From: Paramecium tetraurelia
Lineage: Eukaryota
Assembly: GCA_000165425.1 (NCBI GenBank)
Contig: CT868174.1
Location: 248,001-312,000, forward strand
Direction: 5' to 3'
Length of the DNA stretch: 64,000 bases
The notes beneath the pieces are model-generated. The model made no database searches. It saw only the letters and a list, made by a program, of their open reading frames with translations, and was not told the DNA's origin. Within the stretch, counting starts at the first letter, position 1. Every line of letters starts with the position of its first letter. Shown one piece after another: positions 6,634-22,729 of this stretch. A program made the position numbers and the translations under genes.

Positions 6634-8505
6634 TCAAAATAACAACAACTCAAAAAATCTTATTAAAGATGGAATCAATGCCCCATTTAAATAATAAAAT
6701 AAATACACTCCAACATTATTATAATTGATAACCACCTGTTTATAGTATGTTAAAATCGACTCAAACCCAAAGTATGAAAACAACTAAAAATATCCATATA
6801 AAAACAGTAAATTGATTAAGTATGTGAATATATCCCATAACTTGAAATTAGCTACATTAACAAATAAAAGTACGTTTAAATCTCAATGGTTAAATGAAGA
6901 AAAACCAAGGTCCTAAGAAAATGGCAATAAATGTGGCTATTGGTATTTGAACTATTCCCGCATACATCATCACAAAACATACCTAAATCACTAATTCAAC
7001 CCATAACCATTCTGCCACACTTTCTTTACGAGGCAATCTAAATTATCCAAAAATCCATTTCCTGGTAGAATAAATGATTATCTAGTATATCACTATGATG
7101 GCCAGCATAATGGCAAAGAATTAATTGAAATACTCGAACTCCTGTATATTTAAATAACTCATCATATTTGGAATGAAACATAAGGTGAAACCCATAAAGA
7201 TTTCAATGATTGCTTTATGTGCAACCATTGAATTGCATCTACCCAATTCTTTTTTATCATCATTGTATAAATTGAAATGCCATCTACTATAAACTGACTT
7301 TATGGCAAAGATGGCACAACTCAAAATCACAAACACATAAGGCAAACAATAATTCTGTATTGTCAATGTTGAATTTTTGTTTAAAGGAACATATAGAGTT
7401 GAACCAGAATGGATGAATTCATCGTTTGCCATTAATGCCTTAATACTGGCTTCTCCTACCAATAACAACTTATTAGTCAATTAAACTGTATCATTTTTGT
7501 TTTGAGAATTGTACCCTCTTAATGTTAATGAATAAATTCCATATTTCATAATATAAGAATGAGCATCATGCAGATCTCCTTGAAACATCTCAATTTGATT
7601 TGAAAAATAAGGATTCATATATAAGAATCTAGCTTAAGGTATCTAATACAGAGAATTTAATTCTAATAGCTACCAATATTTTCTTATTTAATTTTCTAAG
7701 TAGGTTTCAAGTTTTTACATCCAAAAATAGTTAGTTTCTGTAAATTAATAATAAAAATTCTATTTTTCCATAATCTTGTTGATACTATTGTAATAATCTC
7801 TGTCTGAGACTTTACCATTCAATCCAAATACCTTCAAGGCAACAGAATCAAATTTATCATCTAGATTGATGTTGATTGAAGATCTGATAGTCCCAGATCT
7901 GGGCATAAAGGACACTCCCTATGGGTTTACATACTCTTCCAAGAATGCTGTAATTCCTTGACCGTATCTTTTATGATTTGAATGATAGCCTACAAATATT
8001 AAATCTCTTGATAAATAATTTATGTCTAAGAATATTATTTTTTATTCATACAATCTGATTAAAATAGTCTAATGAGTGCCAACACATATGCAATACTTCT
8101 GATCTTGATATTCGGAACCTCATCGTTATATTCAAACGATATCAAACTGCATTCATAATCAGGACTTCTTGGTGCTTTCAATTTTGCAATCACATTTTTG
8201 TGCTTCTCCTAATAAAATGTTTCCAAACCCATATTATTAAACGTTTTCATCATCAATTATCGGATATCGCCAGTCTTACCAAATTCTTTCATGTATTACT
8301 CAGAATACTAACTTAAGGTTTAAGCTAACTCATTATTGACCTCGACTTGAATTAATTGACTTCCATCAAAGGAATTTCGATCTGATTTAGATGATATTAC
8401 AAAGAGCAGGTATATTCCATATATAAATGTAAATGGAAATACTAGTATCAATACTTTCCAGAGTTTCCATTTAATAAGCAATTGATATCCTAAGTCTTTG
8501 AACAT
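6634..8505 (-). CDS. GAA1: GPI transamidase subunit Gaa1/GPAA1
   Basis: N-terminal TM helix, then NVIAKLKAPRS, YLSRDLIFV, GITAFLEEY, RSGTIRSSINI and VFGLNGKVSDRD, matching the Gaa1 lumenal motifs. Multiple C-terminal TM helices; short introns. Confidence 0.8.
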
Positions 8506-9252: not shown

Positions 9253-9372
9253 ATTTAATAAACAAAATTAATTACATAATTGGATTTTCATTTATTAGTT
9301 AAAAATCAGTGTTATTGAGTTTCATTCAAAATAACAATAATATTTATAGAATTTTTAATTTTACTAATACTT

Positions 9373-10907
9373 TCATTAAACAACAACAACATTTTTTTGT
9401 ACTGCTTTCTAAGCTTCATCTTCTGCTTCTGGTAATTTTGATCCCTTTTTATTCTGTTTACTTAAATTTCTCTTTCTGATACAAACTATAAAAATAATTA
9501 TGATGATCGATGTAAGAACCACAATAACTATTTTGAGAGCTTCATATACTATAAAATATAATTATGTTATATACGAAATTCTTAGTCGACATTTTTAGGA
9601 GGATATCTAGTTTTGACTGTGATATTGGATTGATTTAATTCATTTTAAAACCAATCATCAGCAGTGAAATTATGTTTCAATTAGTCAGAGGAACAATTGC
9701 TTCTTACAAAGGTTAGAGTCAAGTTTTCCTTGTCAAAACCAATATCCCAATTTCGCATCCACACCTACCCCAATATCATTCTCACACTGCCAGAGTACCC
9801 TGCAACAGGTAAACAATAAGCATCATGTTATACCATGTCTTTGGTTAAGTAATCTCTCGGAGTCCAATCAAAGATAAAATTATTCTCCATGATAAATTGG
9901 TAAGTAGGGAAGAATGAAATAAATTACTCAAAGGATCCATGGAGTGTTTTATTATACACATAACATGCCAAGTCATCATTAAACTGCATTTGAGGACAAT
10001 TAGCAGATTCACACACAAAAAAATTCACCAATGCTCTTGTGACATCAGGATGAGCATTCACAAGAGTAGATCCAGAATCTATGAATGAACCTCCTCCTGA
10101 TTATAGATCTGCTCCTGCCAAGATGGTTTTATTATGAACTTTAATTTGAGAGATCTTAACACCATAAACTGGCTTATTTTGAGTATGCATGTACTAAATT
10201 GTATAATACGCACTGTTCTTCTGATGTCTGCTGTAATCATATTATCCTATTGTCATGTAACCATCAATTCTCCCTATGCAAATGGCAAAGAACAAGTTCA
10301 TTCCATTATGTTGAGTATGAATATCATCCACAATGTTAGGAAATGCAAGACTAGTGTTAGTCTTTGGAGACAAGCCCATTATACCATTTGCCTATTGAGT
10401 TTTGAATAAATTCGTTTCTCTGGTGGTGCATCCGAAAACACTAGTCACACTACTATCCTTCTTTGAGATTGATTCATTGGATGATGACTTAGCCTCCATT
10501 AATAAATCCCCAAAAATCACTTGATCCTTCAAATAAAACCCTTCCAGATGTGATCCTTCAGAATAGGAAATAGAAAAAATGCATTATTGATTCAAACATC
10601 TCAGACAAGTGCATTCTCCAAATTGACTTTTGCAATCCAATTCTTCTTAAGTTGATGAATTATTTCTAATGTAATATTAATCCAAATGGATTCCGCATGA
10701 TTTTGTTTAATCACAAGCATCGCAAGGGAAGGCTGTTATTGAGCTTCCAGTATCAATAATAACTGATTGTCTCTAGGGAGGATTGCCAACATAAATATTA
10801 ACAAAATAGTATCCTAAATCTGAACTTCCATGAATGATAGAAGTGTGAATAGGATCATCATCTTATCCTAGTACTTAAAGTAATTAGATTATATAAATAA
10901 AAAACAT
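9373..10907 (-). CDS. Membrane-anchored A1 aspartyl protease, plasmepsin V/ASP5-like
   Basis: Signal peptide; GYYFVNIYVGNPPQRQSVIIDTGSS; Cys-rich insert; YSEGS; FGCTTRETNLFKTQQANGIMGLS; second catalytic FIDSGST; C-terminal TM helix and basic tail. Confidence 0.9.
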
Positions 10908-11110
10908 ATAAAAAATTAAATGAATTAATATTCTTATAATTTACACAAAATATCATTATTAACTCTTCACTATTATAGATTGAAAATAATATTTCTTGAT
11001 CTCTTTCGATTCGATATTCACTATAGGTTTTATCGATGGAATAAAATAATTCTCATATGATTAAATGAAGAAATTGATGATTTGATAATATTGTACTAAT
11101 AAAAAATGTA

Positions 11111-11501
11111 TCATTATTATGTTAAGATATCAGAATCTCCTGCATCGAATGATGGCCAAACTTGAGCATCTGTGTAATTTACCACAGGCGGTACCTAAAA
11201 TAAGATAAAATCACTCATGCCCATAAACTCAATTAGGAAGAGCTAAGCCTCCCAATTAAACCCCCGTACCTAAATCGACGTTGTTTCCTTGATATAAAAC
11301 AATGGTGATCTAAGCCAACATGGCATAGTATTCAATTTGGGTCTTTCTGATTGTGGGACAATTGTTTGAAATGAATACAAGCTTGGCAGTTCCATTTCTG
11401 ATGGCCTTCAAGGTTTACTTGTAACCCATGGTGATCTTTCCTGATCTAACAACCAATTAGAGTTTTTAGTTGACACTCTCTTAAGCAACATTCTTGACCA
11501 T
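11111..11501 (-). CDS. RPL30: 60S ribosomal protein L30 (eL30), with a 1-nt frameshift near the C-terminus as assembled
   Basis: [62 protein letters not shown]...[12 protein letters not shown]. Intron 11195-11269. The conserved DAGDSDIL lies one base out of frame. Confidence 0.93.
11195..11269 (-). other. Unusually long (75 nt), hairpin-forming spliceosomal intron of RPL30
   Basis: GTACGG...TTTTAG splits the Gly codon of the conserved LGTACGK; removing it restores the motif exactly. Confidence 0.88.
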
Positions 11502-11528
11502 TTTAAAATTAATTTAAAAATTTTAATA

Positions 11529-14500
11529 TCATTTTTTTCCAATTATTGCCCTTATTCTCTCCAAATCCACATCTTCTATTTAATAATGTTAAACTTCTTC
11601 CAATGTTTACAAAGTCTTCGAACCTGTTCCCACCTTCACCACTAAGTATGCCTAAGCCTTGCTTCCATGAATGTACATTTTAATCTCCTCACTTGATTGT
11701 TTCTCGTGTAATCTTATTAATTCACTACTATTCATAAAACATGAACCCAAGATCTCTCTCTCTGCTCCTGAATTCAGAACTCTGAATTCCAAATTACAAT
11801 TAGCTTCCAACCCTACACTAAAACAATAATTGTAAGTCGGATTGCTTTCTCTCACTTGCACTGGAGTTCTATATGATTAATCTCCCAACACCATTTAAAT
11901 AACTGGATTGGGAGCCTTATTTTGATTCAATAAATGTAAGTTTTAAGCCCTTACTATTTGTATTACTATCTCATTTATTTATTGGACCTCAATATTCAAA
12001 TTAATTTTTGATAGGAATACTGAAAAGTCAAATTGATTTAAATATTTATAACCATTCTTGTCAAACACATTGGGTTTTGTGAATAGAGAATATGATTTCT
12101 CACTGAAATTTACTATGTAAAAGGAATCTAACAATTGCTTTGCCTTCTTCTCCTCCATAAACCCATTATTAGATAATTTATATACTTCTTCAATCAAGTC
12201 CCATGTTAAATTTTACTCTGACAAGAAGAAATTCTATTTATTGAAGTGATATCCTATCTGATCACTCAGAAATGCATATTCGTTGTTATTAACTAATTTC
12301 GAAATGTATTCATATAGCTATCTGTCAATCTTATAATTCTATTGCAATTCATTCAATTTCTAGCAACCATATATTTGATTTTAGGAATAAAATTTCACAA
12401 AATTTGGAATCATTTCCTCATACTCATTAATTAACATCAGCTTAATGCCGACTCTGCTAATAAAACAGTCATAATTAATTGTGAAATATTCATTCATGCA
12501 TATAAATCTACTATCAATTTAACTTTGAGTCAAATGATTAAACTTTATATTTAAATCTCCTAACTTAACATCCTTCAATTGATTAGCAGCATTCTTCTTA
12601 CTAAAATATACAGTTATTGTTAACTCCTAATAAGATTGCATTTCCACTGCTAAGAATGACTATGCCAATTAACAGGACAATTCTAGTATAAAAATTAATA
12701 TTACTCTTTTTATCGATTTGTTCAGGGTTGGTTTAATGAGTTTTCCCATTGAGTTTCAAGACAAAGTACAGAAAACCAGTGTCATTGCCTGCTGGTTTTA
12801 ACAATTAAGAAATGTTAATAATGATCTCTCTAATTGAAATCATACAAGTAATCTATTTTAATCTTTCTTCCTACTCTTTCTCCTTTAATATTGCCTATTG
12901 TTGAACCAAAGGAATTTTGTATTTATTCAATTGGCATTTCAATTTAGCAATTCCAACAAATAAACCAAATGAGTTAGTTAACGCAAATTCACCTTCAATT
13001 TACCCTCTTAGCAATTAAGTTTACATCAATTCACATTTTCCAATAAGATTTTAAGTATTGCTCGACACTTGTATGATCATTTATTATGCTGATAACGCTT
13101 AGATCAATTCATTATCAACTTACAATTGTTTTTCTTCATTTATTATAACAGTCTTTTAACCTTATTATTTAGATCTAAATTAAGTAAAATACTTACATCT
13201 ATGCAGTAAAATTGACAGCTGAATAAATATCCACCTTGATTATTTTATCTTCAAATTTAAGTGCCTTATCATTTAGAGTTACTTCAGCATAGACATTTAA
13301 TCCTACTCTTTTAGGCAAATGAATTTCTTGATGGGTTTGATTATGACTGGATAACAATTCTGGATTCGAGGAAAGTTATTATTAAGTTATCTTCTATCTA
13401 GAATAGTTGATATTAAAACTAAGCTTAGCATTTACAGGCATAAACACTAAGACTTTATCTTTAACCAAATCTGAATTCCTTTCCATCCAACTGACTATCT
13501 CTTAACAAGAAAGGAAAGTTTAAGCCAAGCTTTGTTCATCAGTCTTTAGTCTAAAATATATACCTCCTTCTATTGAGTCAACAACATCAATAAATTTAGT
13601 ATTTTGTTCAATTTATTAAATATATGTGTAAGTAGACTCTGAAGGACATTGATATTGAGTTTACTTTGAGTAAATTAAAGGGTATGATTTGATTATTTAT
13701 TCACATAGCGGATATTTATATTCAACACAAAGTTGAGTACCATAAGGAATCGATAATTTCAAATTTTAGATTTCTTTTAGAGTGATACTAAATTTATGCA
13801 CATAAAATTCAAGGTTCTTATTCTCTTGATTTTAATTTTCCTTATCCTCCAAATCAAATTACTTTGGTTTATTCTACACAACAGGAGGTTTAACTTCCTC
13901 TTATTTGATCGAAAACCAATCTTGCAATAGTGATTTCTATATCTCCCAATCCTGTAATACAAAATTATTGTTCTTGACTTTAATGAATCTGAATATACAA
14001 TACACTTCCCAAAATGATACATTAATTAGGCATTGATTAAACATTTCTTGTACTTCTTCAATATTGAGAGTCAACTTTGTCACTTCATCTAGTTGTATAA
14101 TTTATGCCTTCTATAATATTGAACTTTAGATTGCTAAACAATACCAAAATTCATTTATCTCTTCTAATTTTACATAATTGAATTACACAAACTAACATGT
14201 TAATTCATATAATAATTTAATTGAAACCAATCTTCTATCCTGAGGTTGCCCCAAGAAATATCCAAAGAACTCAAAATCAAAGTCAGGAATGTATTACTCT
14301 AATTTTGATCTTTCCATTATTCCATAATCACTCTTTTGTAGAATTTTACCTACATACTCAAGAGGATCCTATCGCTAATCAATTAGATATTAAATGAATT
14401 TCTTAATCTATTTGTTTACTTCTACGGATATTCTAGGCCTAAAAATGTTGAATGCAGTTAGACTATTAAGCATATGCTCTTTTTTTATTGAATGCTAATT

Positions 14501-22411: not shown

Positions 22412-22729
22412 TAGCAATGTATATCAATAAATAGATATAAAAAAAATATTATAAAATGTATAAAAACTCACCAAAATTGGCTACAAACCTGCTTAATTCA
22501 AGCCATCCTTATGCTAATCTTAACTCTTACGTTCCCATTTGAAGGATGACCCAAAGGGTTCCAATTCCATTATATGTTCATTATTTTAAGTAGTAGAAGC
22601 ACACATTTACATTACTTTATGGGTTTATCAAAATAACACCAAATGAAGATTGCTATTAAATATCTATGGATTTCTTTTGTTTATTTTTAATTCTCTTTAT
22701 ATTTGATAATTAACAAAATAAAATTTCAA

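Follow-up and report, generated by a model that had tools for sequence, protein, structure and literature searches.

A spliced 75-nucleotide intron with conserved ends in the RPL30 gene of Paramecium tetraurelia, a candidate for a cis-acting RNA element

In Saccharomyces cerevisiae, the ribosomal protein L30 binds a kink-turn (K-turn) in the pre-mRNA of its own gene, RPL30, and blocks its splicing. This is the classic case of feedback by a ribosomal protein, and RPL22, RPL10a and RPS14 use conserved intron elements. RNA structure is also known from the long introns of yeast, in which so-called zipper stems shorten the distance between the 5' splice site and the branch point, or hide decoy 3' sites. 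In Paramecium, introns that have a length divisible by three (3n) and that are visible to nonsense-mediated decay (NMD) were reportedly described by Jaillon and co-workers in 2008.

Paramecium is the textbook case of an organism in which the introns have been squeezed to about 25 nt. The available sections of PMC5485702 state that about 98% of the P. tetraurelia introns are 20-30 nt long, that introns longer than 40 nt account for 720 of the 94,711 introns in the v2 annotation, and that introns longer than 45 nt were thrown out of the v1 annotation. The same sections, citing Chen et al. 2009, mention a 'handful' of introns of about 80 nt that contain snoRNAs. Poorer splicing in Paramecium goes together with a higher GC content of the intron, according to an excerpt of PMC8997360, and autoregulation of RPL10a is cited in an excerpt of PMC12862383.

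Here we describe a 75-nt intron in an RPL30 gene of P. tetraurelia. The literature that we searched yielded no description of the Paramecium RPL30 intron, and no case of structure-assisted splicing of long introns in Paramecium. The gene resembles yeast RPL30 in that a member of the same protein family is encoded, the gene contains a single intron, an element of it is unusually conserved, and retention of the intron would lead to a premature stop. However, in yeast RPL30 the K-turn is formed by the transcript's 5' end together with the 5' splice site, whereas no conserved K-turn core was found in Paramecium. Also unlike the yeast element, the predicted hairpin in Paramecium begins at intron nt 7, and this intron interrupts the coding sequence after 232 nt.

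The eL30 (RPL30) gene is a small gene on the minus strand of the window, that is, of the whole 64,000-nt stretch of DNA analysed. It starts with an ATG at 11501, ends with a TGA stop at 11113-11111, and is organised as follows.

11270..11501, minus strand: eL30 exon 1, with the ATG at 11501-11499, 77 codons and the first base of a split Gly codon.
11195..11269, minus strand: phase-1 GT-AG spliceosomal intron of 75 nt (GTACGG...TTTTAG), with the joint present in RNA contigs of runs X15 and X17.
11111..11194, minus strand: eL30 exon 2, including the TGA stop (11113-11111), with the frame broken by an extra base at 11148.
11148, no strand assigned: the extra base, absent from all covering contigs of runs X4, X9 and X15.

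Translation of exon 1 with the ciliate code yields 77 residues that match the Pfam family Ribosomal_L7Ae/L30e (PF01248, E 4.7e-16) and that are 100% identical to L30 entries of P. tetraurelia and P. primaurelia. Removal of the 75 nt joins ...NNVDLG to TACGKLHR..., in agreement with the full-length L30 of 104 residues from P. primaurelia and P. sonneborni, and the sequence across this junction is conserved eL30 sequence. The extra base at 11148 shifts the frame 9 codons before the stop, which results in the C-terminus LAIIRCRRF, unlike that of the full-length relatives. At this position, the ratio of deletion depth to total depth is 40.9/40.9 in X4, 140.6/140.6 in X9 and 5.9/5.9 in X15. Because every covering contig in these three runs lacks the extra base, it most likely represents an error in the assembly or a variant private to it.

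The gene is closely flanked on its upstream side by a gene for a C2-domain protein (Pfam C2), the TGA of which (11531-11529) is located just 27 nt from the eL30 ATG (window positions 11502-11531). The 25 nt before this ATG show no difference from a second gene copy, which is referred to below as paralogue B; slightly farther upstream, several paralogue contigs diverge, with loose ends at 11528-11538. The spacer at 11502-11531 may be a very compact conserved promoter or a 5' leader. The downstream neighbour (9309-10952, minus strand) is a gene for a pepsin-type aspartyl protease (Pfam Asp, E 2e-22).

The splicing of the intron was assessed by aligning the contigs of four public runs to window positions 11050-11560. 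Exactly 75 bases were skipped by RNA contigs of X15 and X17, two runs that stem from different studies; one intron-skipping RNA contig is 295 nt long and has zero mismatches. Since 9 bases at the joint fit on either side, the canonical placement at 11195-11269 was chosen, which reads CT..AC on the plus strand and GT..AG on the minus strand. A transcript of paralogue B with the same junction was detected as well, its loose end after 11199 bearing both of the B-specific exon letters. In contrast, the contigs of X4 and X9 (both from 'organism A') are contiguous through the intron, with 0 joints; the kind of these two runs is unrecorded, and they behave like genomic DNA. Because the 75 nt are skipped by RNA contigs and kept by DNA-like contigs, the segment at 11195-11269, to which an earlier note on this DNA had assigned the intron with the exact coordinates, is a genuine, normally spliced spliceosomal intron and no assembly artefact. 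No RNA contigs with the intron retained were present in X15 or X17, but contigs cannot show rare forms, and we do not take their absence as an argument against retention.

The intron had also been singled out for its size and for being G-rich, and both properties are evident. Its 75 nt lie outside the range of 20-30 nt that marks a typical Paramecium intron and that includes about 98% of the introns in the accessible text of PMC5485702. It is composed of 21 G, 8 C, 15 A and 31 T (28% G), and its GC content is 38.7% versus 26.9% across the whole window. The spacings between GTA and TAG in the window show a weak peak at 25-26 nt (39 and 32 occurrences versus a background of 22.8 +/- 5.4). These counts replaced a frame-bridging heuristic for all introns of the window, which produced 861 candidates and was too noisy because TGA is the sole stop codon.

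Four L30 protein entries exist for P. tetraurelia (P0003, P0027, P0028 and P0029), and every one of them is mis-modelled at the long intron. P0029 ends with ...DL-ALPN, which corresponds to the product of the window copy after removal of a false 27-nt intron (intron nt 1-27, 11243-11269) that ends in the UAG of the hairpin loop described below. The peptides of P0003 and P0028 enter the intron (GTGVQKESLFFFD and GTGVQREAQFFFD, respectively) and both stop inside it, and P0027 goes through the intron in another frame with 201 residues open. The long intron explains why none of the four RPL30 gene models in the first annotation of P. tetraurelia is correct. The read-through peptides, which start with GTGV..., imply the same intron start for all four P. 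tetraurelia copies. The intron of paralogue B is 75 nt long, and the P0027 copy appears to have an intron of 74 nt, not a multiple of three, that would be almost identical to the one in the window from nt 17 onwards. Ordinary introns of about 25 nt in other copies had been named beforehand as an observation that would speak against a special role of this intron. The other P. tetraurelia copies for which a length could be derived instead have introns of 74-75 nt; the introns of the window copy and paralogue B are known as DNA, and the remainder are deduced from peptides.

As observed in the earlier note, the length of the intron is a multiple of three, and its retention introduces an in-frame TGA at 11229-11231 (intron nt 39-41). 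The same combination is found in paralogue B, where the 75-nt intron also has its TGA at intron nt 39-41, and the position of this codon is common to the window copy, paralogue B and P0028; the extension to other copies fails for the P0027 copy with its apparent 74 nt. The window copy and paralogue B therefore resemble the NMD-visible 3n introns of Paramecium, with one paralogue apparently deviating in length. An in-frame TGA would arise by chance in roughly four in ten cases by our estimate for 25 codons of such composition.

Beyond these four copies, P0030 has a peptide that implies a stop right after the codons GGT ATG GGG GTT. In a more distant relative, the protein encoded by exon 1 is 82-85% identical, and the entries P0014 and P0037 of this relative extend 19 codons into an intron located at this site. 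The codons of these entries would force a TGGGC about 48 nt into the intron, as well as an apical segment of which 16 of 18 positions are compatible with that of the window copy. When the read-through tail of P0037 was used for a protein search, only its own cluster was matched.

The position of the intron is common to other ciliate-like L30 genes. Among the best 20 of at least 80 metagenome loci, a phase-1 GT-AG intron of 59-448 nt is present at the same codon in 9 of 10 AT-rich ciliate-like loci, the tenth being cut by the contig end, and in 0 of the 10 other loci. By eye, no likeness was visible between the intron sequences of these ciliate-like loci and the present one. A search for more Paramecium RPL30 DNA returned only distant ciliate-like loci from metagenomes among the matches listed, which do not include the contig behind P0035, 8 unrelated loci from genome contigs, and none from viral contigs. 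A separate observation concerns the end of one ciliate-like metagenome contig (L008:3099-3196), which contains a long near-perfect palindrome. On either strand, this palindrome gives sub-threshold matches to many unrelated models of miRNA precursors, and it probably represents a generic hairpin or an artefact of the contig end.

The second intron known as DNA allowed a comparison by position. Paralogue B is the sequence of the window with the 40 substitutions and 2 indels of a 359-nt contig, and its read-through translation equals P0003 exactly. In exon 1, the two copies differ at 26 of 232 positions, and all of these differences are synonymous (pS 0.51, with 50.7 synonymous sites). Within the intron, two blocks stand out.

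11257..11269, minus strand: intron nt 1-13, block with the 5' splice site and a G-run (GUACGGGGGUUUA), 0 of 13 positions different from B.
11195..11224, minus strand: intron nt 46-75, conserved 3' block, 3 of 30 positions different from B.

Within the 3' block, a weak second hairpin (nt 46-70) is predicted, and this block also includes CUUAU as the likely branch region, together with the 3' splice site. The intervening nt 14-45 have accumulated 11 substitutions and 2 indels, so that the middle of the intron has diverged at about the synonymous rate. If the synonymous rate applied, 3 or fewer differences in 43 positions would have a probability of 6e-10; with the rate of the intron middle, this probability is 3e-5. 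When the splice and branch signals are left out, 2 of 25 positions differ, with probabilities of 6e-6 and 3e-3 at the respective rates. The best conserved parts of the intron are thus its ends. Conservation is lowest, at least in the comparison with B, in the stretch that the central hairpin occupies; to judge from their peptides, the other copies may have kept the apical sequence of this hairpin. Judged from these alignments, the conservation of the intron argues for a function. Moreover, the intron is more than a one-off, because its length and ends are conserved in every copy examined.

With respect to the adjoining exon, the first 27 nt of exon 2 (11167-11194) show no synonymous difference from B, despite the pS of 0.51 in exon 1. 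The contig depth at 11167-11194 is about three times that of neighbouring bins, as though this sequence were common to all copies. Pairings are predicted between the start of exon 2 and the intron blocks, namely GUGAUUU with AAAUUAC and UGGGCAU with AUGCUCA.

The explanation that we tentatively prefer, and that we regard as a fair possibility somewhat short of an even chance, is that the RPL30 intron carries a conserved cis-acting RNA element that serves its own splicing. Such an element would let a spliceosome that is tuned to 25-nt introns remove a 75-nt intron accurately. The length of the intron has stayed at 74-75 nt in Paramecium, a genus in which almost every other intron measures 20-30 nt. 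The conserved ends consist of the 5' splice site with the G-run, and of a 3' block of 30 nt that includes the likely branch region. They may be brought together by three pairings, namely a helix between GGUAC and GUACC, a central hairpin with a purine arm and a pyrimidine arm that would loop out 37-39 nt, and the weak hairpin in the 3' block. In the window copy, a would-be branch region would lie within the stem of the central hairpin, and a decoy UAG (intron nt 25-27) would fall into the loop. The sequences involved are the following.

11248..11263, minus strand: 5' arm of the predicted central hairpin, intron nt 7-22.
11225..11240, minus strand: 3' arm of the predicted central hairpin, intron nt 30-45, containing the in-frame TGA at 11229-11231.
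11191..11199, no strand assigned: 3' copy of a 9-nt direct repeat (GTACCTAAA, read on the plus strand), with the other copy at 11266-11274 and a spacing of 75.

A stem of about 16 bp with G-U pairs had been noticed from the sequence at the outset, and intron nt 7-22 can indeed pair with nt 30-45 in an unbroken helix of 16 bp that includes 7 G-U pairs. A helix of that length arose by chance in 11 of 5000 dinucleotide shuffles and in 9 of 5000 mononucleotide shuffles. The predicted fold of the intron as a whole has an energy of -14.8 kcal/mol (z -0.29), with 65 of 200 shuffles being at least as stable, and folds that include the flanks have z values of 0.05, -0.99 and -0.76. The stem is perfect only in the window copy and imperfect in the others. 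In paralogue B, a fold is still predicted at this place despite the 11 substitutions and 2 indels; a 3-nt bulge separates its upper part of 8 bp from its lower part of 6 bp (-8.2 kcal/mol). The longest helix of B, with 10 bp, is unremarkable and was reached in 1957 of 5000 shuffles.

Retention of the hairpin was evaluated with 3000 simulations per test, and the outcome was marginal. Shuffling of the intron middle reached the real energy in 4.5% of cases for the window copy and in 7.2% for paralogue B, and simulated divergence reached the energy of B in 9.9% of cases with the same substitution spectrum and in 52.7% with random substitutions. That pairing has been kept is weak evidence, because arms made of purines and pyrimidines tolerate most transitions through G-U pairs.

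The weak second hairpin (nt 46-70) is predicted from each of the two copies alone. Of the three changes in the 3' block, two concern partners in this hairpin and turn G54-U63 into U54-A63, so that a pair is kept; the chance of this is about 0.02. The predicted folds of both copies also contain a closing helix of 5 bp, in which GGUAC of the 5' splice site is paired with the GUACC that begins exon 2. It is the palindromic GTAC core of the direct repeat that lets GGUAC pair with GUACC; in paralogue B, only 7 of the 9 bases repeat. Taken from two DNA sequences, these predictions are suggestive of a compact three-helix fold of the intron, and we infer that the folds may form and help or control splicing.

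Such an arrangement would resemble the yeast zippers in several respects. A stem in an over-long intron would loop out 37-39 nt, the predicted helices would bring the splice sites close to each other, and the central hairpin would have a decoy UAG in its loop and a would-be branch region, rich in A, in its stem. Unlike in the yeast zippers, however, the predicted stems are thermodynamically ordinary. The folding that the earlier note expected to shrink the intron towards the normal size would leave 36-38 nt, which is above the usual 20-30 nt.

Several observations speak against a plain aid to splicing. None of the folds exceeds composition-matched shuffles in stability, U1 would find the 5' splice site concealed by the closing helix, and it is left unexplained why the intron was never simply shortened. 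In addition, gene conversion could explain part of the identical tracts. A threefold-long intron in every duplicate of a highly expressed gene marks sequence that selection will not release, and with 75 nt, one gene and four natural variants it offers a tractable substrate. It raises the question of how a short-intron spliceosome handles a long intron, and also that of ribosomal-protein feedback through splicing and NMD in ciliates.

Such feedback was at the centre of the earlier note. An excess of eL30, or of another ribosomal or splicing protein, would bind the intron element and block splicing; the retained intron would bring in the TGA, NMD would remove the transcript, and the four gene copies would be balanced in this way. 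We consider a switch of this kind doubtful. It is favoured by the strong conservation, in the intron of a ribosomal-protein gene, of blocks that are not splice signals, by the in-frame TGA at the same codon in the window copy, paralogue B and P0028, and by the precedents of yeast RPL30, RPL22, RPL10a and RPS14. Since a high GC content lowers the efficiency of splicing in Paramecium, as stated in an excerpt of PMC8997360, the intron may moreover be tuned weak.

On the other hand, the K-turn that had been anticipated for eL30, a member of the K-turn-binding L7Ae family, could not be substantiated. A scan of 239 nt around the intron for a stem of at least 3 bp with a 3-nt bulge and tandem G-A pairs gave 10 candidate cores, as compared with 10.4 +/- 5.3 in 500 shuffles. 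The 7 candidates in paralogue B include none at positions homologous to those of the window copy. The conserved G-run block lies next to the 5' splice site, and the GGUAC there may be engaged by the 5-bp helix, but K-turn geometry is absent. The P0027 copy, with its seemingly 74-nt intron, would upon retention have an open frame of 201 amino acids, and the retained form is absent from RNA contigs, although rare forms escape contigs. Furthermore, most splice variants of Paramecium were judged to be errors genome-wide, as far as the consulted part of PMC5663052 goes. With no conserved K-turn and a hairpin that is not thermodynamically unusual, feedback by L30 is possible but unsupported.

A variant of this idea would dispense with the canonical kink-turn. 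A conserved three-helix fold, read by eL30 or by another sensor of ribosome assembly, could set the ratio between splicing and NMD across the four copies. We regard this variant as unlikely. If true, it would represent the first autoregulatory intron of a ribosomal-protein gene outside fungi and animals, and such a feedback device would explain the resistance of the intron to the genus-wide shrinkage to 25 nt.

It is also conceivable, though rather improbable in our judgement, that the intron is a functionless relic, left over from an ancestral long intron that happened not to shrink, and that the identical tracts reflect gene conversion or constraint on the neighbouring exon. This would fit with the ordinary stability of the folds and with the identical tract being contiguous, as it runs from the 3' part of the intron into exon 2 over a minimum of 27 nt; identity is also complete in the 25 nt that precede the ATG. 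However, the long intron and recognisable blocks of it recur outside this genome, to judge from the peptides of P0030, P0014 and P0037, and the length is 75 nt in both of the copies known as DNA despite indels. The middle of the intron has diverged at about the synonymous rate, and gene conversion would therefore have to spare the middle.

Alternatively, the intron might host a small stable RNA, like the introns of about 80 nt with snoRNAs in the same organism, which belong to the same size class (PMC5485702, in the sections available). Its size and the presence of conserved internal blocks would agree with this, but unlike those introns it has neither C/D nor H/ACA boxes nor an Rfam match, which renders a hosted RNA improbable. 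Specifically, the motifs RUGAUGA, CUGA and ACA were absent, by reading, from the introns of both paralogues. A search of Rfam gave no match in the intron at E <= 10, none in the 64-kb window at gathering score, and none for the same-site introns of 8 ciliate-like loci. A SNORD72 candidate at 11079-11151 was dismissed as a chance match (E 5.6, 19.5 bits versus a threshold of 43).

Finally, it is very improbable that the segment is a germline-type internal eliminated sequence (IES), or a small insertion that duplicated its target site. The 9-nt direct repeat, with a TA in both copies, does flank the segment, but DNA-like contigs from two runs retain the 75 nt, which only RNA contigs lack. Moreover, the repeat is only 7 nt in paralogue B, and an intron is found at the same site in other ciliate-like loci. 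The repeat is therefore no target-site duplication, and it is largely forced by the splice consensus together with the Leu-Gly and Gly-Thr codons.

Elsewhere in the window, ARAGORN predicts a 79-nt tRNA-Ala (anticodon TGC) at 1084-1162 on the plus strand, where Rfam at gathering score has no tRNA. The conserved block of the intron, which reads ATGCCCATAA in antisense, resembles AAACCCATAA, an upstream element of small-RNA genes in ciliates (PMC3273799). We dismissed this resemblance as nothing special, since it is one of 151 matches with at most 2 mismatches, versus about 125 expected. Exact copies of AAACCCATAA are located at 7188-7197 on the plus strand and at 22617-22626 on the minus strand.
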